A DNA stretch of 52,222 nt from Chthonomonadaceae bacterium. Its GTDB lineage: Bacteria; Armatimonadota; Chthonomonadetes; Chthonomonadales; Chthonomonadaceae. The notes beneath the pieces were generated by a model that did no database searches, was not told the origin of the DNA, and saw nothing but the letters and a program-made list of their open reading frames with translations. Both the position numbers and the translations under genes were made by a program. Location of the stretch: assembly GCA_035650735.1 (NCBI GenBank), contig DASRGZ010000081.1:1-52222 (forward strand). Reading direction: 5' to 3'. Positions 663 through 48,197 of this stretch are shown here, in pieces (the stretch's first letter is position 1; each line of letters starts with the position of its first letter).

Positions 663-2513
663 ATGGATCGTCATAACCGTATTTGGATTCTATCCTTAGG
701 TCTGGGCCTTCTGGTTGGAGGGGTGCTGATCGCCGGCTGCGCCCAGGAGCGTTCGGCACCGCCCACGACGCCGCCCGCAACCCCGACGGCGGCCGCGCCA
801 CCGCCCACGTCAGCGCCGCCTGCCACGGCCCCTGCCGCCCCGGCTGCGCCCGCAGCCCAAACGGCGGCTGCGCCCACGACGCCCACGACGCCCGCCGCCG
901 TTCATGCGCCGCAGACGTTTCGGCCCTATATCGTGGTGAATCAGCCGCCGCCCAAACCGGCGCATGTGACGCACCGGCATCGGCGGCTGCACCTGACCCG
1001 CTATCACCGGCGCTACTATCTGGCCGATGATACGGGCCGCTACTACGACATCGGCCGCGACCGCCGGGGGAATCTCTACCCGGCCTATCGCGACCCGGAC
1101 AGCGGAGCCTATCTGCCGCTCCATTACGACCCGGATCGCGACCGCTACTATCGCCTTGCGCGTGACGACGAGGGCCACTACTACCGCAACTATACGGATG
1201 AGCCCGACGACCGCTACTACCCGGACGAGGACGACTACTATTACCATCGCCGACGCTACTATCATGCCGAGGACGACTATTACGATCAGGACGACCGGCC
1301 CGTCATTACCGCGCCGCATCACTCCAGCAATCGGGACGCCTGGCTGCTGGCCATCCCGGTGCTGATCGCCGCCTACTTTCTGCTGCGGCCCCGGCACCAC
1401 AATCCGCCCACGCCGGTCACGCAAACGCGCACTGTGATCGTGCGGCCCGCCCCGCAGCCGACGCCGCCTCCGGTGAACGTGATCGTGATGCCGCCGTCGC
1501 CACAGCCTTCCAGGCCGCCGGTGGTTGTCAGGCCCGTGCAGCCGACACCGCGCCCGACGACGGTAGTCGTGGTTCCGCCCACACGCGCCGCCGCTCCGCC
1601 TGTGCGTCGGCTCGCGGTGGCGCCGCGTCCGGTTGTGCGTGCGCCCGCGCGGCCCATTGTGCGCCCGGCCCCGCCACATCCGGCGATAGCGGCTCCTCCG
1701 CCTACGCGGGTGGTCCGGCGCTCTGTCCCGCCGCTACCTCACCCGGCTCCGGCCCTCCATCCGGCAGCGCCGCCGCCGGTAGCCCATGCAGTGGCGCCTC
1801 ATCTCCCGACGCGCGCCCCGGCACCGCCCGCCGTACATCCGGCCCCGCCACATCCTATCGCGCGCACTGTCCCGGCACATCCTGCACCGGCGCATGTGGT
1901 CGTGCGTCCGCCCATGCATCCTGCGCCGATAGTTCCGCGCGCGCAGCCAGCGCCCGTGCGGTCTGTAGCGCCTCCTCACCCGGCGGTTCGTTTCAGGGCT
2001 CATCGGACGCGGCGCCCCGTCGTGCGCGCCCCGGCGCGGCCCGTGCGGCCTATGGCGCCCCCAAAACCCGTACACCGCGCGGTGCCGGCGCATCCTCGCC
2101 CGCGCCCGGTAGTGCCTCCCCCACCGCGCAGGGTGGTCCGACCGGTTCCTCCGCCAGCTAGGGTGCTGCATCGCGCACCAGCCGCGCCGCGCGCCGTGCG
2201 TATCCATCCGGCAAAGCGTGCGCCTGTACGCCCGGCGCATGTTTACCGGACGCATCCCACGGTGGTGCGCCGATCTGTGCCGCAGATCGTGCGGCGCAAG
2301 CCGATAGTGACGGCGCGAACGCGTATCGTGGCCCATCCGACTCGCCCGGCGCCTCCCGTGCGGCTGCATGTCACGCGGCCCCCTGTCTCGTATCCAGGGC
2401 CGCCGGCCTATGGCGCCCGACGCAAATTCGGCCAGGCCCCGCCCATAGCCCGCGGACACTCTAAGGGGGAGAAGGAGGCAAGAAAAGCCGAGAAACACAA
2501 CGAAAAACACTAA
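663..2513 (+). CDS. Pro/Arg/His-rich predicted lipoprotein with Tyr/Asp-rich segment and internal TM helix (hypothetical)
   Basis: 616-aa ORF with RBS GGAGAGG, hydrophobic N-terminus ending in lipobox LIAG-C, TM segment AWLLAIPVLIAAYFLL and long low-complexity tail. Confidence 0.75.
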   Translation: MDRHNRIWILSLGLGLLVGGVLIAGCAQERSAPPTTPPATPTAAAPPPTSAPPATAPAAPAAPAAQTAAAPTTPTTPAAVHAPQTFRPYIVVNQPPPKPAHVTHRHRRLHLTRYHRRYYLADDTGRYYDIGRDRRGNLYPAYRDPDSGAYLPLHYDPDRDRYYRLARDDEGHYYRNYTDEPDDRYYPDEDDYYYHRRRYYHAEDDYYDQDDRPVITAPHHSSNRDAWLLAIPVLIAAYFLLRPRHHNPPTPVTQTRTVIVRPAPQPTPPPVNVIVMPPSPQPSRPPVVVRPVQPTPRPTTVVVVPPTRAAAPPVRRLAVAPRPVVRAPARPIVRPAPPHPAIAAPPPTRVVRRSVPPLPHPAPALHPAAPPPVAHAVAPHLPTRAPAPPAVHPAPPHPIARTVPAHPAPAHVVVRPPMHPAPIVPRAQPAPVRSVAPPHPAVRFRAHRTRRPVVRAPARPVRPMAPPKPVHRAVPAHPRPRPVVPPPPRRVVRPVPPPARVLHRAPAAPRAVRIHPAKRAPVRPAHVYRTHPTVVRRSVPQIVRRKPIVTARTRIVAHPTRPAPPVRLHVTRPPVSYPGPPAYGARRKFGQAPPIARGHSKGEKEARKAEKHNEKH

Positions 2514-2529
2514 AAGTGGATTCCACCGC

Positions 2530-2559
2530 TTGACAAGCAAGCCGTCCGGCGTGTATAAT
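2530..2559 (+). promoter_or_regulatory. Sigma70-type promoter for the T-box leader
   Basis: Perfect TTGACA (2530-2535), 18-nt spacer, TATAAT (2554-2559). Confidence 0.85.
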
Positions 2560-2712
2560 CTGCGCACGTCACCATTGCTTGCAAGCGCTCTGTAGGGCGC
2601 AGAAGAAGCAACAGATTTATTCTCACCCCGCGCGGGAGAAACCGGGCGAGACGCGATCTCACTTCCGGGGTAGTCCTTCTCTCTGCGCGGGGTGAACCGA
2701 GAACAACGTACA

Positions 2713-3005
2713 GCGTCGAGAAGGTGGAGTAAGCGGGCGGCGCGGTCCCAGCGAGCCGGGTTGGTGAGAGCCGGTACGAGCGAACCTGCCGAAATGGCCT
2801 TTGAGCTGCGTCCGTGAAAGGCTTGGGCCGAGTAAGGGACGCCGGGGGGCTCCCGTTACAGGGTTAGGGTGTCAGGCGGCGCTGCCGTACGCAGATGGAC
2901 CGCTGGCGCACCCGCTGAGGTCGCGTCCGCGAGGGCGCGGCGAAGACAGGTGGAACCACGAAGGCCTCAGCCTCTCGTCCTGTGCCGGGGACGAGAGGCT
3001 TTCTT
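2713..3005 (+). ncRNA. T-box riboswitch (transcriptional), specifier most likely AUG = Met
   Basis: Stem I with GA motifs, AGUA, AGCGAG bulge, GGUG apical loop and GAA-AUG-G specifier loop (2791-2797). Stem II CGUCC/GGACG with GAA/AGUA S-turn, then CCGUUA element. T-box ACAGG-UGGAACC-ACGA (2946-2961) pairs with UCGU-CCUGU as antiterminator, overlapping the terminator. Confidence 0.93.
2969..3005 (+). terminator. Intrinsic terminator of the T-box attenuator
   Basis: AGCCTCTCGTCC (2969-2980) / GGACGAGAGGCT (2989-3000) 12-bp stem followed by TTCTT. Confidence 0.88.
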
Positions 3006-3071
3006 GGTTTGGCGTAGAGGAGAATACAAGCGGACGTGGGGCGAGCGGTTACGCCCGCAGGAGGAAGGGGA

Positions 3072-4328
3072 ATGGCCAAAGTACTCGGATTGCGATGCCG
3101 GGAGTGCGGGGAGGAGTATCCCATCAGCCCGGTGCATGTGTGCGAGCTCTGTTTCGGGCCACTGGAGGTGGTGCTCAACTGGGAGGAGGTCGCGCCCAAA
3201 GTCTCGCGCGAAACCATCGCCGCCGGCCCGCCGTCCATGTGGCGCTATCACGATCTGCTGCCCGTCGAAGGCCCGCCCACCGTCGGCAAAAATGTCGGGT
3301 GGACGCCGCTGATCCGGGCGGAGCGGCTGGGCCGCGCGCTGGGCCTGAATAATCTCTATATCAAGAATGATGCCGTCAACCATCCGACCCTCTCCTTCAA
3401 AGATCGCGTGGTGGCCGTCGCGCTGACCAAAGCGCGCGAGTTCGGCTACGATACCGTCGCCTGCGCCTCCACCGGCAATCTTGCCAACTCCGTCGCCGCT
3501 CACGCTGCCGAGGGCGGCTTCCGCTCTTATGTCTTCATTCCGGCCAACCTGGAGCAGGGCAAGGTGCTGGGCACGCTCATCTATGGCACGAACGTGCTGG
3601 CCGTCAGCGGCAACTACGACGAGGTCAACCGCCTGTGCGCGGAGGCCGCCGGCAAGTACGGCTGGGGCTTCGTCAACATCAACCTGCGGCCCTTCTACGG
3701 CGACGGCTCCAAGACCTTCGGCTACGAGATCGCCGAGCAGCTGGGCTGGCGCGCGCCCGACCATGTCATCGTGCCGTGCGCGGGCGGCTCGCTCATCAGC
3801 AAGATCTACAAGGGCCTCAACGAGTTGAACCGGCTGGACCTGCTGGAAAACGGCGTGCCGACCCGGATGTATGCGGCGCAGGCAAAGGGTTGCTCGCCCA
3901 TCACCACCGCCATCAAGACCTGCGCCGACGTGTTCCGCCCCCAGAAGCCCGACACCATCGCCAAATCTATCGCTATTGGCAACCCGGCGGACGGCTACCT
4001 GGCAATGGAGACCGTGCGCAAGTCCGGCGGCTGGGCCGAGGACGTCACCGATGAGGAAGTCATCGAGGGCATCCGCCTGCTGGGCCGCACCGAAGGCATC
4101 TTCACCGAGACCGCCGGCGGCGTGACCGTCTCCGTAACCAAGAAGCTGGCCGAGCAGGGCCGCTTCCAGCCCGATGATGTCGTCGTCATCGCCATCACTG
4201 GCAACGGCCTCAAGACCCAGGAGGTCGTTGTTGGGCAGCTGGGCCGTCCTGTCGCCATCGAGCCGAACCTGGCTTCCCTGGATTCGGCGCTCAAGACCGA
4301 GAAATTGCTTGCAAGCGTGAATGCTTAA
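3072..4328 (+). CDS. thrC: Threonine synthase-like fold-type-II PLP enzyme (probably a sulfur-carrier-dependent O-phosphohomoserine sulfhydrylase)
   Basis: N-terminal CxxC..CxxC zinc ribbon, PLP lysine motif PTLSFKDR, ASTGNLA, ITGNGLK. ATG at 3072 after GGAGGAAGGGG. Confidence 0.9.
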   Translation: MAKVLGLRCRECGEEYPISPVHVCELCFGPLEVVLNWEEVAPKVSRETIAAGPPSMWRYHDLLPVEGPPTVGKNVGWTPLIRAERLGRALGLNNLYIKNDAVNHPTLSFKDRVVAVALTKAREFGYDTVACASTGNLANSVAAHAAEGGFRSYVFIPANLEQGKVLGTLIYGTNVLAVSGNYDEVNRLCAEAAGKYGWGFVNINLRPFYGDGSKTFGYEIAEQLGWRAPDHVIVPCAGGSLISKIYKGLNELNRLDLLENGVPTRMYAAQAKGCSPITTAIKTCADVFRPQKPDTIAKSIAIGNPADGYLAMETVRKSGGWAEDVTDEEVIEGIRLLGRTEGIFTETAGGVTVSVTKKLAEQGRFQPDDVVVIAITGNGLKTQEVVVGQLGRPVAIEPNLASLDSALKTEKLLASVNA

Positions 4329-4570
4329 CCTCACCCCTGGCGGCAGGCTAAACCCTGCCGCTGTGGGGCCTGCGGCCCGCTGCCCACCTACGTGGGCAGA
4401 AAAACCCTGGCTTCTCTTCTCCCCTCCCCTGTTGTTGGGGATCGCTAGGCGGAGGGCTGTGGCCAGGTGTGGCTAGGCGGAGGCGCGAACCATTGCAGCG
4501 CCGACCCGAGCAGGGGCCCGAGCCCTTGCAGGGCCGACCCTTGCAGTGGGTCGGAGGTGGGGGCCTTAAC
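4327..4570 (+). repeat. Modular REP/BIME-like intergenic repeat copy
   Basis: GCGGCAGGCTAAACCCTGCCGCTGTG (4340-4365) is identical to 37082-37107. GCCGACCC-[TT/GA]-GCAG tandem units are shared with 32940-33025. Confidence 0.75.
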
Positions 4571-4599
4571 CGGGGTGAGAGCCAAAATGGAGAAAGAAA

Positions 4600-4875
4600 A
4601 TGGCTGTTAACGTGCTGATTCCTACGCCGCTGCGGAAATATACCGATAATCAAGAGATGGTCACGGCCTCCGGGGACACCGTGGCCGCGCTGATCGCCGA
4701 CCTGGAGCGCCAATATTCCGGCATCGCCGCGCGCCTGACCGATGAGCAGGGCGAGCTGCGCCGTTTCGTGAATATCTACGTCAACGAGGAGGATATTCGC
4801 TTCCTGGAAGGGAAAGATACCCCCGTCAAGGACGGAGACACTGTTTCCATCGTCCCCGCCATCGCAGGAGGCTGA
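4600..4875 (+). CDS. MoaD/ThiS/CysO family ubiquitin-like sulfur carrier protein
   Basis: 91 aa with V.IPTPLR, LRRFVNIYVNEEDIRFL and C-terminal IVPAIAGG di-glycine. Confidence 0.95.
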   Translation: MAVNVLIPTPLRKYTDNQEMVTASGDTVAALIADLERQYSGIAARLTDEQGELRRFVNIYVNEEDIRFLEGKDTPVKDGDTVSIVPAIAGG

Positions 4876-5113
4876 TTTCCGCGCCGCACGCCGTTGCTGG
4901 CCCCGGATCGCCGCCTCCGGGCTTGCACGGCATGGCTGACGGTTTCCTGTGAGTTCGGCCCTTCTAATGTTTGCCTATCGAATGGGGTACTTCCAGGGCT
5001 AAGACCTGCCGAAATAAAGAATGAAAGGACATTCAGAGGCTTGCCGCCGGCAGCCTCGTCCTTTAGGGCCGGGCAGAAACCGATGGATGCTCCTCAGGAG
5101 GAGGCGCCCTCGA

Positions 5114-5647
5114 ATGCCTGTTGTTACCGTTGAATTGACCGCTGACAGCGATAGCGTAGGCCAGCCGATCATCTGGCGGCTCGGCAAGCTGTTTAACGTC
5201 GTCACCAATATCCGCCGCGCCCGCGTGACCGAAGACTACGGCCACGTGGCGCTCACCCTGGAAGGCTCCACCGGCGAAGTCGAGCAGGCCGCCAACTACC
5301 TGCGCTCTCTTGGCCTGCTCAAAGACACCGACGCTTCCGCTCCCTCTGCGCCGAGCAGCGCCGCTCCCCCGGAAGAGGCCATCCCGCGCCCCAGCAGCAT
5401 CTACGTGCGCCTCAGCACGGTCAACGCCGCGCAGGGGCAGACGCCGTTGCTGTACCGGGTGGGCAAGGATTTTAATGTCGTCGTCAACCTGGAGCGCGCC
5501 GCTTTCGACGACGAAGAGGGGGGATGGGTGGAAATCACCATCTCCGGGCCGCTATCGGAGGTGCAGCGTGCCATCGCCTTCCTGCATACCACCGGCCTCC
5601 ACGTCAACCCACGCCAGCGCTCCGTGACCGATTACGGAAACTTGTGA
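5114..5647 (+). CDS. Tandem (double) NIL-domain protein
   Basis: Two repeats of the NIL signature (QPIIWRLGKLFNVVTNIRRA..G...L.LEG and TPLLYRVGKDFNVVVNLERA..GGWVEITISG) joined by an Ala/Pro/Ser linker. ATG 5114 after AGGAGGAGG. Confidence 0.85.
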   Translation: MPVVTVELTADSDSVGQPIIWRLGKLFNVVTNIRRARVTEDYGHVALTLEGSTGEVEQAANYLRSLGLLKDTDASAPSAPSSAAPPEEAIPRPSSIYVRLSTVNAAQGQTPLLYRVGKDFNVVVNLERAAFDDEEGGWVEITISGPLSEVQRAIAFLHTTGLHVNPRQRSVTDYGNL

Positions 5648-5792
5648 CGAGTCTGACAGCCCCGCCGGAAACTGTGGTCCGACATTGAGCCTTCGAGAGG
5701 CAGCCACGTTTTCATGGGGCGCTACCGATCAATCTTTCCCAGCGAGCAAAACGGAGCAAGTGTCCACCCGCACGATTACGGAAACTTGTGAC
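5629..5792 (+). repeat. 20-bp exact direct repeat duplicating the NIL gene 3' end
   Basis: CGATTACGGAAACTTGTGAC at 5629-5648 and 5773-5792. Confidence 0.85.
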
Positions 5793-5831
5793 CAATCTCT
5801 CCGGCGAGAGTAGTAAGGGCTGTAATCACCT

Positions 5832-6869
5832 ATGCATGTCTCCTTCCTTCCCTACCTGGTAGACCCGGCGACGCAGGAACCGCTGCAATTGGCGGTCGAA
5901 AAGCGTGAGGGGGATATTATCCTGGAGGGAACCCTGTATTCCTCCTCCCATCGCTATCCTATTGTGCGCGGCATCCCGCGCTTTGCTGGCTACAACGAGT
6001 CGGCCAACTACGCCCGTTCCTTTGGCTATCAGTGGCAGAAGTGGTCCCGCGTACAGTTTGAAAGCGAGAATCGGGGCAGGCACATGGAGGGTCATACGCT
6101 GCGCATGTGGGAAAGAATCACCGGCATCGAAACCCAGGACTTGCACGGGGCCGTGATCGCCGATTTTGGCTGTGGGCCGGGTCGGTTTATCGAGATCGTC
6201 CGGATGAAGAACGGCAAGGCAATTGGGCTGGACCTGAGCGAGGCTGTGGAAGCGGCGGCAGAAAACTTCCAGGGCGACCCCAACGTGCTCATCTGCCAGG
6301 CCGACGTCTTGAATCCTCCGATTCGTACCCGCTCGGTAGACGGCGCATTTTCTATCGGGGTTTTCCACCATACGCCCGATCCGGCGGGAGGCTTTGCGGC
6401 CATGGCCCGGACGGTGCGGCCCGGCGGATGGACGGCGGTGTGCGTCTATGGCAAGGGAGGTTACTACGATTTCCCGACCGTGACGCTCTACCGCAAGCTG
6501 TTCAAGCTGCTCTGGCCGATCTGCAAGCACTATGCTCCGCTGATCTACGCCCACCTGACCGTCTATCTGCTCAGTCCCATCGCCCGCATCCCGCTGGTGG
6601 GCAAGCTGGTGAAAGGGTTCTTTCCCTTCATCTGCCTGCCGGATGTGCGCTGGTCCATCCTGGATACCTTCGATAGCGTCACGCCCTCCTACCAATCGGC
6701 CCACGAGGCTTACGAAGTCTTCCAGTGGCTGAAAACGAACGGCCTGGTGGAGATAGAAACGAGCAACTGGGGCTTTGCCACCTATAACGGCCGCATACCG
6801 GAATGCGAAGTCGCTGTGGTTCCCTGTGCGGAACAGACGGCCACAGCAGCCCGCGCCGGCGCCCGATAA
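5832..6869 (+). CDS. Class I SAM-dependent methyltransferase with N-terminal Trm112-like domain
   Basis: LVDPATQEPL...YPIVRGIPRF (Trm112-like), SFGYQW, DFGCGPG SAM motif I, SIGVFHHTPDP, LDTFD. Confidence 0.88.
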   Translation: MHVSFLPYLVDPATQEPLQLAVEKREGDIILEGTLYSSSHRYPIVRGIPRFAGYNESANYARSFGYQWQKWSRVQFESENRGRHMEGHTLRMWERITGIETQDLHGAVIADFGCGPGRFIEIVRMKNGKAIGLDLSEAVEAAAENFQGDPNVLICQADVLNPPIRTRSVDGAFSIGVFHHTPDPAGGFAAMARTVRPGGWTAVCVYGKGGYYDFPTVTLYRKLFKLLWPICKHYAPLIYAHLTVYLLSPIARIPLVGKLVKGFFPFICLPDVRWSILDTFDSVTPSYQSAHEAYEVFQWLKTNGLVEIETSNWGFATYNGRIPECEVAVVPCAEQTATAARAGAR

Positions 6870-47921: not shown

Positions 47922-48197
47922 ATGGAGATAATAAGCAACATGGCCGAGACCGAAAGCATTCGCGTCCAACTCGACTACCCGCTCGAACGGGTGACCCAGC
48001 CGATCATCTATCATCTGGTGACCGACTACCACCTCATCCCCAATATTCGGCGCGCTAACATCGACTCGCACGCCGGCGGCATGATGGTCCTCCAGATCGA
48101 GGGCACGCGCGCGGACCTGGAGGCAGGCATGGACTACCTGCGGCGCCTGGGCATTACTGTCACCGAGGTCGGGCTGGAGCAGCCATGGGCGGTCTGA
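47922..48197 (+). CDS. Stand-alone NIL-domain protein
   Basis: L.YP...V.QPIIY.L..DY.L.PNIRRA.I....GG.M.L...G. Start is 47922 or 47940. Confidence 0.85.
   Translation: MEIISNMAETESIRVQLDYPLERVTQPIIYHLVTDYHLIPNIRRANIDSHAGGMMVLQIEGTRADLEAGMDYLRRLGITVTEVGLEQPWAV

Follow-up and report, generated by a model that had tools for sequence, protein, structure and literature searches.

Does the gene that stands behind a T-box leader near the start of a Chthonomonadaceae contig, and that would be annotated thrC in databases, serve threonine synthesis, or do the codon in its leader and the genes beside it assign it to methionine? The window analysed here is a stretch of 52,222 nucleotides, contig DASRGZ010000081.1 of assembly GCA_035650735.1 (contig C81 of the source genome, G000, of 6.5 Mb and 97.6% completeness; the handles G, C, and L denote the genomes, contigs, and loci compared in the analysis). 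At 2707-5647 that window carries the leader, a ThrC-like pyridoxal-5'-phosphate (PLP) enzyme, a ubiquitin-fold sulfur carrier ending in Gly-Gly, and a protein composed of two NIL domains. On the observed basis of structure, specifier, gene content, and distribution, we consider it quite probable that the locus encodes a homocysteine pathway of the MetM/MetO type, in which an S-adenosylmethionine (SAM) riboswitch was replaced once by a methionine T-box—the chemistry and the response to tRNA being deduced rather than observed. The features of the locus are the following.

2530..2559, forward strand: sigma-70-type promoter, 12/12 consensus positions, 18-nt spacer (2 sites in 2400-5900 against 0.5 expected).
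2707..3010, forward strand: class I (transcriptional) T-box leader with terminator (RF00230, terminator scan, covariation).
2713..2806, forward strand: Stem I with AG bulge, GNUG loop, S-turn, and specifier loop (RF00230 and aligned leaders).
2794..2796, forward strand: AUG as specifier codon (Met), at bases 2-4 counted from the end of the bulge, kept in 30/30 aligned leaders.
2808..2842, forward strand: Stem II (covariation of helices 5-9, a set spanning 2808..2941).
2843..2865, forward strand: Stem IIA/B pseudoknot (covariation of helices 5-9).
2867..2913, forward strand: extra conserved hairpin between Stem IIA/B and Stem III (covariation of helices 5-9).
2920..2941, forward strand: Stem III (covariation of helices 5-9).
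2946..2983, forward strand: antiterminator with the 7-nt bulge UGGAACC at 2951-2957, variable base A at 2954 (RF00230, covariation of helices 10-11).
2969..3010, forward strand: intrinsic terminator, 13-bp stem at 2969-3000 plus U tract, overlapping the antiterminator.
3072..4328, forward strand: MetM-like PLP enzyme of 418 amino acids (PALP), with a Cys-rich, Zn-ribbon-like N-terminus and the PLP lysine K110 in SFKDR.
4329..4599, no strand: spacer of a genome-wide repeat, outside the system (605 blastn matches in the genome).
4600..4875, forward strand: MetO-like ubiquitin-fold sulfur carrier of 91 amino acids with a Gly-Gly end (ThiS family, 72.1 bits).
5114..5647, forward strand: tandem NIL-NIL protein of 177 amino acids, read from the ATG at 5114 with its ribosome-binding site and not from the start of the open reading frame at 5021.

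The presence of a complete class I T-box ahead of the PLP-enzyme gene is confirmed. The RF00230 model matches positions 2707-2985 with 61.7 bits (E 5.2e-13) over all of its 219 positions, so that the T-box claimed by the original prediction, which had been made from the DNA letters alone, stands at full length; but the score misses the Rfam gathering score of 93, and because of that shortfall a default Rfam scan, which returned no family at gathering score in the window, overlooks the element. The same holds for all four T-boxes of the source genome, the other three scoring 85.4-92.7 bits: one for Asp at C165:6676-6996, one for Leu at C118:13549-13835, and one for Val at C98:34556-34856. The T-box regulons of the Armatimonadota are thus probably under-annotated.

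The structure itself, derived from the leader of the window, was examined in an alignment of 30 leaders, whose members are related by descent. In that alignment 95.6% of the cells pair and 31 of the 54 base pairs have changed on both sides, 12 of the 17 pairs in helices 1-4 of Stem I among them; none of 500 shuffles reached the leader values, and controls in which the structure was slid along the sequence paired at 35-44%. Minimum-free-energy folding, for its part, placed neither the whole leader (z -0.35) nor Stem I alone (z +1.54) beyond the shuffles, so that the structure rests on the covariation. The antiterminator and the terminator overlap, and therefore only one of them can form. Similar promoter boxes precede the leader in the relatives, and between promoter and Stem I the window has a unique segment of 147 bases with a long hairpin (2566-2712), longer than in most of those relatives. 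The leader recurs without difference in contigs from the DNA sequencing runs X1 and X2, from two studies—one of the runs covering it may be the window's own source—and a strain variant in run X6 has nine differences within 2715-2856, none of them touching the AUG.

The codon displayed by that leader is what ties it to methionine. The specifier loop reads GAA-AUG-G between the closing pairs AAGG/CCUU, and according to the TBDB rule (PMC7778990) the specifier comprises bases 2-4 counted from the end of the bulge, which register gives AUG. In the other three T-boxes of the source genome this register yields GAC (Asp) ahead of an aspS-like gene, CUC (Leu) ahead of ilvB, and GUC (Val) ahead of valS, the gene names being taken from the translations. 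We surveyed 39 loci of the order Chthonomonadales, from 38 of the 39 enzyme-bearing genomes plus locus L135, together with 10 loci of Armatimonadales/Capsulimonadaceae. Among the 39, two loci are cut by contig ends, one lacks upstream DNA, and two have no T-box, the remaining 34 having a complete Stem I; AUG is present in every one of those 34 and in the further 10 (44/44 complete loops). The neighbours of the codon vary, the preceding base being absent, A, or C and the following one G, A, or U; which variation rules out the alternative frames AAU (Asn), UGG (Trp), and GGC (Gly), and no codon for Thr, Cys, or Gly is conserved in the specifier loop. The proposal of a methionine rather than a threonine specificity is accordingly upheld, and we regard the assignment of this T-box to methionine as supported by the sequence comparison.

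The enzyme downstream likewise departs from threonine synthase. Its translation passes the thrC model TIGR00260 with 278.8 bits against a cut-off of 167.1, the model being a broad one; nevertheless, the source genome has a separate, short, canonical ThrC on contig C201 (326 bits), 37% identical to the window enzyme, which is thus not the sole ThrC there. The closest named relatives belong to the Chthonomonadaceae/Chthonomonadales (79-87% identity), and homologues of the enzyme are present in 57 of the 251 genomes of the phylum of genome G061. A search of the PDB by sequence gave threonine synthases as best matches and no solved MetM. In a quick IQ-TREE phylogeny of 66 proteins, with supports from the Shimodaira-Hasegawa-like approximate likelihood-ratio test, the 18 T-box-led enzymes form a single branch (99) inside a clade (100) that also contains 25 SAM-led homologues and 13 unlabelled ones (that is, ones for which the motif or Rfam scan found nothing), the seven ThrC standing apart (99). 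The members of the MetM-type clade have in common a Cys-rich stretch at the N-terminus and a loop in the active site that differs from that of ThrC: N-x-N-x-R-P-x-Y-x-x-G-x-K in all MetM-type rows versus N-S-x-N-P-x-R-x-x-G-Q-K in the seven ThrC, the positions R206 and Y209 being kept in 56/56 of the former and occupied by N and R in 7/7 of the latter. In the Thermus enzyme the Arg of the ThrC loop is important for catalysis. As a separate observation, the genome holds a third, distant ThrC-family paralogue (L045:1326-2579, contig C79), whose N-terminus is Cys-rich and whose phosphate-binding motifs are altered.

The carrier supports the same assignment. Its gene adjoins the enzyme gene in 29 of 30 loci, and enzyme and carrier are, respectively, 51.6% and 53% identical to those of a SAM-I-led pair in Nonomuraea, whose enzyme falls in the same clade. 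The link to the MetM of Streptomyces albulus (A0A059WBP2) would be indirect, passing only through that Nonomuraea pair and the shared clade; a cyanobacterial homologue, for its part, has been reported to be 51.6% identical to the S. albulus enzyme (PMC12172450). Tree, loop, and the Nonomuraea pair thus favour the MetM/MetO reading of these two genes put forward in the original prediction, whose other gene assignments—a ThrC-like enzyme, a GG-ending carrier, and a NIL-NIL protein—are borne out by TIGR00260, ThiS, and two Pfam NIL matches. Palindromic repeats occupy the spacers between the three genes, present in hundreds of copies at 4329-4599 and in tens at 5038-5075 (60 blastn matches in the genome for the second); since the spacers hold repeats and in a relative of the same genus measure only 18 and 26 bases, the three genes probably form one operon.

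Outside the phylum, members of the same enzyme clade are governed by a different device. Within the 80 best homologous loci the T-box motif was present in all 21 of the Armatimonadota and in none of the 59 others; a SAM-I riboswitch was found upstream in 20 of the 20 non-Armatimonadota loci sent to Rfam out of those 59 (17 of them picked by motif and three not) as well as in nine of 20 further loci, Nonomuraea included. The SAM-I-led loci come from Verrucomicrobiota, Planctomycetota, Methylomirabilota, and deltaproteobacterial and acidobacterial records. Because two unrelated switches, the methionine T-box and SAM-I, control members of it, the clade is tied to methionine. From the tree we infer a single replacement of the SAM-I riboswitch by the methionine T-box, in an ancestor of these Armatimonadota; the earlier proposal of a T-box in place of a SAM riboswitch is supported. 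Such replacement is known in the Lactobacillales (PMC3766115, PMC2494555), and the lists of T-box phyla in those same sources name Firmicutes, Actinobacteria, Chloroflexi, Deinococcus-Thermus, and a few deltaproteobacteria. For a T-box ahead of thrC, the sole reported case is the true hom-thrC-thrB operon in Bacillota (PMC12452182).

The remaining steps of the pathway were sought in the source genome and in 61 Chthonomonadales genomes, of which 45 are at least 90% complete and 39—as a minimum—bear the enzyme. The activator and the peptidase, which the original prediction had reported as missing from the window, are on contig C17 of the source genome, in an operon containing cysM, mec (JAB), and a fusion of a carrier with MoeB and rhodanese (MoeZ). 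In that fusion (L043:2998-4500) the carrier domain is joined through GG to MoeB-rhodanese, and the full-length form occurs in most of the family; the fused carrier would presumably need to be cut free by Mec. Of the 39 enzyme-bearing genomes 38 have MoeZ and 36 have Mec, versus 8 and 9, respectively, of the 22 others. The genome also has a HomK (TIGR02535, 504 bits over a cut-off of 446) and no ThrB over cut-off, and HomK has been reported to complement thrB (PMC13759103). In addition, a MetH (cut by the contig start) and MetE-like catalytic domains are present, and the one SAM-I match in the genome, among 150 of 502 candidates scored, lies ahead of metK.

The methionine gap of the family lies with MetA and MetX. 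MetA was found in none of the 61 genomes, and a MetX-like gene in 23 of them and not in the source genome; the 45 more complete genomes divide into 25 with the enzyme but not MetX, 15 with MetX but not the enzyme, three with both, and two with neither. Genomes G056 and G057, inside the MetX family, have the enzyme and no detected MetX. Several points nonetheless weigh against this reading. The alternation of enzyme and MetX mostly follows two families, so that it provides few independent contrasts. Moreover, the expected absence of metA, metX, metB, and metY from the source genome holds for MetA and MetX but not for the other two, in that a MetY-like sulfhydrylase reaches 546.9 bits with TIGR01326 (cut-off 495.1) and a MetB-like enzyme 494 bits, just under its cut-off of 513; given these two, the carrier route may not be the only one. 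The MetY-like gene (L041:2278-3594, contig C118) is flanked by ilvC and leuA in the cluster led by the Leu (CUC) T-box.

On this basis we propose the following sequence of events. HomK would provide O-phosphohomoserine. MoeZ, whose gene is on a contig other than that of the window operon, would adenylate and thiocarboxylate the C-terminal Gly of the carrier, which chemistry is known and whose application to this particular carrier we suppose. The PLP enzyme would then exchange the phosphate of O-phosphohomoserine for the sulfur of the carrier thiocarboxylate to yield homocysteine, Mec serving to regenerate or mature the carrier, and MetH, whose gene is present, would methylate the product. When methionine becomes short, the CAU anticodon of uncharged tRNA-Met would pair with the AUG and its CCA terminus with UGG in the bulge, and the binding would stabilise the antiterminator and allow transcription of the operon, a response that we extrapolate from T-box biology.

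Threonine is the first alternative to be weighed: the enzyme might in the main be an additional threonine synthase, or have both activities with threonine as its main task, the carrier and the methionine control being incidental. Besides the TIGR00260 score, this explanation draws on the Microcystis homologue, with an adjacent carrier gene, which in vitro acted as a threonine synthase and as a deaminase and was not considered to function fully as a MetM (PMC12172450). It draws also on the order itself, since no canonical ThrC was found in four of the 39 enzyme-bearing genomes (G013, G014, G001, and G057), and since in G013 and G014, the two without a T-box, the enzyme is the only ThrC-like match over cut-off. 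These findings count against a purely methionine role. Both relatives (L247 on C1 of G013; L025 on C96 of G014) have kept the promoter and a remnant of the terminator, and their deletions differ; the two events look independent, the well-supported branches being compatible with a single origin as well. On its long branch the G013 enzyme has departed from the conserved residue at 12 sites, two of them in the active-site loop, versus 0-7 such sites in the T-box-led copies and one in the G014 enzyme. G013 is 98% complete in 20 contigs and G014 94% complete in a fragmented 940; G001 (610 contigs) and G057 (740 contigs), with no detectable ThrC, yet keep the T-box. The overlap of T-box loss with ThrC absence, noticed after the fact, would arise by chance in about 6 of 666 cases by hand calculation. 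Together with the activity in Microcystis that overlap suggests a latent dual activity. Against threonine synthesis as the main task stand, however, the canonical ThrC kept in 35 of the 39 genomes, G000 included (three of these genes are cut by contig ends), the methionine T-box or SAM-I control in several phyla, the nearly constant adjacency of the carrier gene, and the loss of the ThrC loop; we consider it very unlikely.

A second alternative concerns the switch, which might no longer follow tRNA-Met normally, either through answering to another ligand with U73—a tRNA-Thr, -Gly, or -Cys, for example—or through having been weakened into a largely closed state. The discriminator base is what speaks for it, and at the same time against an ordinary methionine response. 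In most T-boxes the UGGN of the bulge matches the discriminator (PMC7778990), as it does with their own tRNAs in the other three T-boxes of the source genome. In the window the variable base 2954 is A, which does not pair with the A73 of the genome's elongator tRNA-Met, a mismatch that the original prediction does not mention; throughout the family the bulge reads UGGA in 27 of 30 leaders, UGGG in two, and UGGU in one, the elongator having A73 in 30/30 loci (the best 30 of 45 matches) and the initiator C73 in 30/30 (the best 30 of 61). The supposition of a U73 on the tRNA-Met of this family was thus wrong; in the source genome U73 is carried by tRNA-Thr, -Gly, and -Cys. Nevertheless, the AUG is invariant and accompanied by no conserved codon for those three amino acids, every helix still covaries, and the expected UGGU is present, with the same AUG, in 6/6 leaders of two sister families and 10/10 leaders of the Armatimonadales group. 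Because these sister lineages have UGGU, the mismatch is derived and fixed in the family; and because they pair it with the same AUG, the methionine specificity is ancestral. We find it very unlikely, therefore, that the switch no longer follows tRNA-Met normally, and tentatively read the mismatch as a tuning of a methionine switch. Two observations on the tRNAs deserve separate record: bacterial initiator tRNAs usually have A73, and the initiator here combines C73 with a U1-U72 mismatch in 30/30 Chthonomonadales loci (e.g., L140:121-197, equivalent to C119:64820-64896 of G000; L172-L201); and ARAGORN called a selenocysteine tRNA gene at C198:18921-19018 of G000.

That the product of enzyme and carrier is instead a different sulfur compound (cysteine, cystathionine, or cysteate), under a methionine control reflecting sulfur economy, finds some backing in Nitrospirota, Nitrospinota, and deltaproteobacterial loci, where the orthologues often share a cluster with cysM, mec, and moeZ, but is very unlikely, given that the source genome has a CysM of its own with its own carrier fused to MoeZ, that the enzyme scores 58.3 bits with the cysteate synthase model TIGR03844, far under the cut-off of 324.9, and that its gene alternates with MetX and not with a cysteine gene.

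Within the preferred reading of a MetM/MetO pathway under methionine control, the third gene of the operon is the least readily placed. Each half of its product passes the Pfam NIL cut-off of 24 bits on its own (43.6 and 32.7 bits), and the predicted model, with a mean predicted local distance difference test (pLDDT) value of 87.8, has two ferredoxin-like domains. A structure search of 48,161 chains gave as its best three matches the C2 domains of MetN (Z 9.0-9.3, root-mean-square deviation 2.0-2.4 over 77-78 residues of the second repeat), in the absence of any match in the PDB by sequence; the microcompartment proteins that headed the Foldseek results were set aside for their poor deviation. 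In MetN, methionine is bound across the C2 dimer through N295 (PMC6233128), and both repeats of the window protein contain an N-x-x-x-A, with N32/A36 and N125/A129, whose spacing suggests equivalence to N295/A299. From the model we propose that the NIL-NIL protein may be a covalently joined dimer of the MetN-C2 type.

The distribution of NIL genes near the system fits such a dimer working with the carrier pathway, in that they are tandem in the window's family and in Nitrospinota and occur as two adjacent single genes in Methylomirabilota; three deltaproteobacterial loci, moreover, have a carrier-GG-NIL fusion (L080:5287-5799, L083:5287-5799, and L087:5282-5794). As to function, the feedback subunit envisaged in the original prediction retains in its favour the binding-type Asn of the window protein and is called into question by the kept Asn in only 13 and 14 of 22 family copies for the two repeats and its replacement in all six distinct Armatimonadales/Capsulimonadaceae copies scored; other phyla for the most part retain it. 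Methionine feedback at the enzyme and an action on the carrier or the sulfur-loading step appear to us as two possibilities of equal and limited likelihood, some other role being slightly more doubtful. The predicted complex of the enzyme with the NIL-NIL protein scored 0.02, which we take neither for nor against any of these.

One might go further and join these strands: the fixed mismatch would tune the T-box, perhaps for an A73 elongator together with a U1-U72/C73 initiator; a methionine-sensing NIL-NIL protein would gate the carrier pathway; and the enzyme would retain a latent threonine synthase activity, so that the lineages losing thrC (G013 and G014) shed the T-box and rely on a single enzyme for both amino acids. 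We hold this combined scheme to be speculative and, as a whole, unlikely.

Other neighbours were noted in passing. A chlorite dismutase/HemQ-family gene lies between enzyme and carrier under the same methionine T-box at L069:4287-5117 and in eight other Armatimonadales/Capsulimonadaceae loci. The methyltransferase gene downstream (5832-6869) had one weak match beside the operon among 88 loci and was excluded from the system. Upstream, at 663-2513, an open reading frame encodes a Pro/Arg/Ala-rich, lipoprotein-like product of 616 residues with no Pfam or NCBIfam match, and at 47922-48194 the window has a second, single NIL gene (59.4 bits), whose neighbours, named from their translations, are glycogen-debranching-like and MarR-like.

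The ThrC-like/carrier pair of Streptomyces named in the original prediction is the subject of an existing paper: the thiocarboxylate route of MetM/MetO in S. albulus (Hasebe et al. 2024, AEM 90:e01247-24; known to us through PMC12172450, PMC13759103 with its S1D Text, and bioRxiv 10.64898/2026.09.15.751699), where, according to these citing papers, the PLP enzyme makes homocysteine from O-phosphohomoserine and the carrier thiocarboxylate with the involvement of Mec. Pathway and switch are thus each already known, and the locus is a well-supported regulatory variant of the pathway. Like the author of the original prediction, we found no description of a methionine T-box with a ThrC-like enzyme, a carrier, and a NIL protein, in a search that covered neither TBDB entries nor most supplements, and no paper on a T-box in Armatimonadota, in a literature search that missed most subscription journals. 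The consequences are several. The thrC of at least 39 of 61 Chthonomonadales genomes would be re-annotated, filling the methionine gap in a family most of which has no detected MetA or MetX; a widespread enzyme clade receives an independent, codon-level argument for serving methionine, matching its SAM control elsewhere; and T-box control, along with the exchange of a SAM switch for a T-box, extends to a phylum outside the lists of the cited surveys. The locus also raises the questions of what the conserved discriminator mismatch does, what role the NIL partner has, and whether MetM reverts to threonine synthesis upon thrC loss.

Compared with known systems, the leader has the Stem I, II, IIA/B, and III, the antiterminator and terminator, and the specifier—here AUG—of the class I T-boxes of RF00230. 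With the methionine T-boxes of Lactobacillales it shares the replacement of SAM control (PMC3766115, PMC2494555), differing from what those sources describe in its Armatimonadota host, its sulfur-carrier target, the family-wide UGGA facing A73, and the extra hairpin between IIA/B and III. The NIL-NIL protein has the fold of the MetN C2 domain, an N-x-x-x-A spaced like N295/A299, and a link to methionine (PMC6233128); unlike MetN or the NIL/ferredoxin protein that serves the DUF39 homocysteine route (PMC5764234), it is a stand-alone tandem without ATPase or ferredoxin, and its Asn varies among orthologues. The enzyme resembles ThrC of the Thermus/Aquifex/Bacillus class in its PLP fold type II, its SFKDR lysine, its likely substrate, and its passing of TIGR00260, and differs in its 37% identity to the ThrC of its own genome, its separate clade, its Cys-rich N-terminal extension, and its active-site loop. 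Finally, by its sequence features the system would have every trait of MetM/MetO examined except the SAM switch: as in S. albulus, a ThrC-like enzyme often misannotated, an adjacent carrier, MoeZ and Mec in the genome, and a methionine-linked control. Unlike S. albulus, for which a SAM riboswitch is reported, ThrB is the source of the substrate, and no NIL gene figures among the four steps listed, the Chthonomonadaceae locus has a methionine T-box, HomK, and a NIL-NIL gene of its own.

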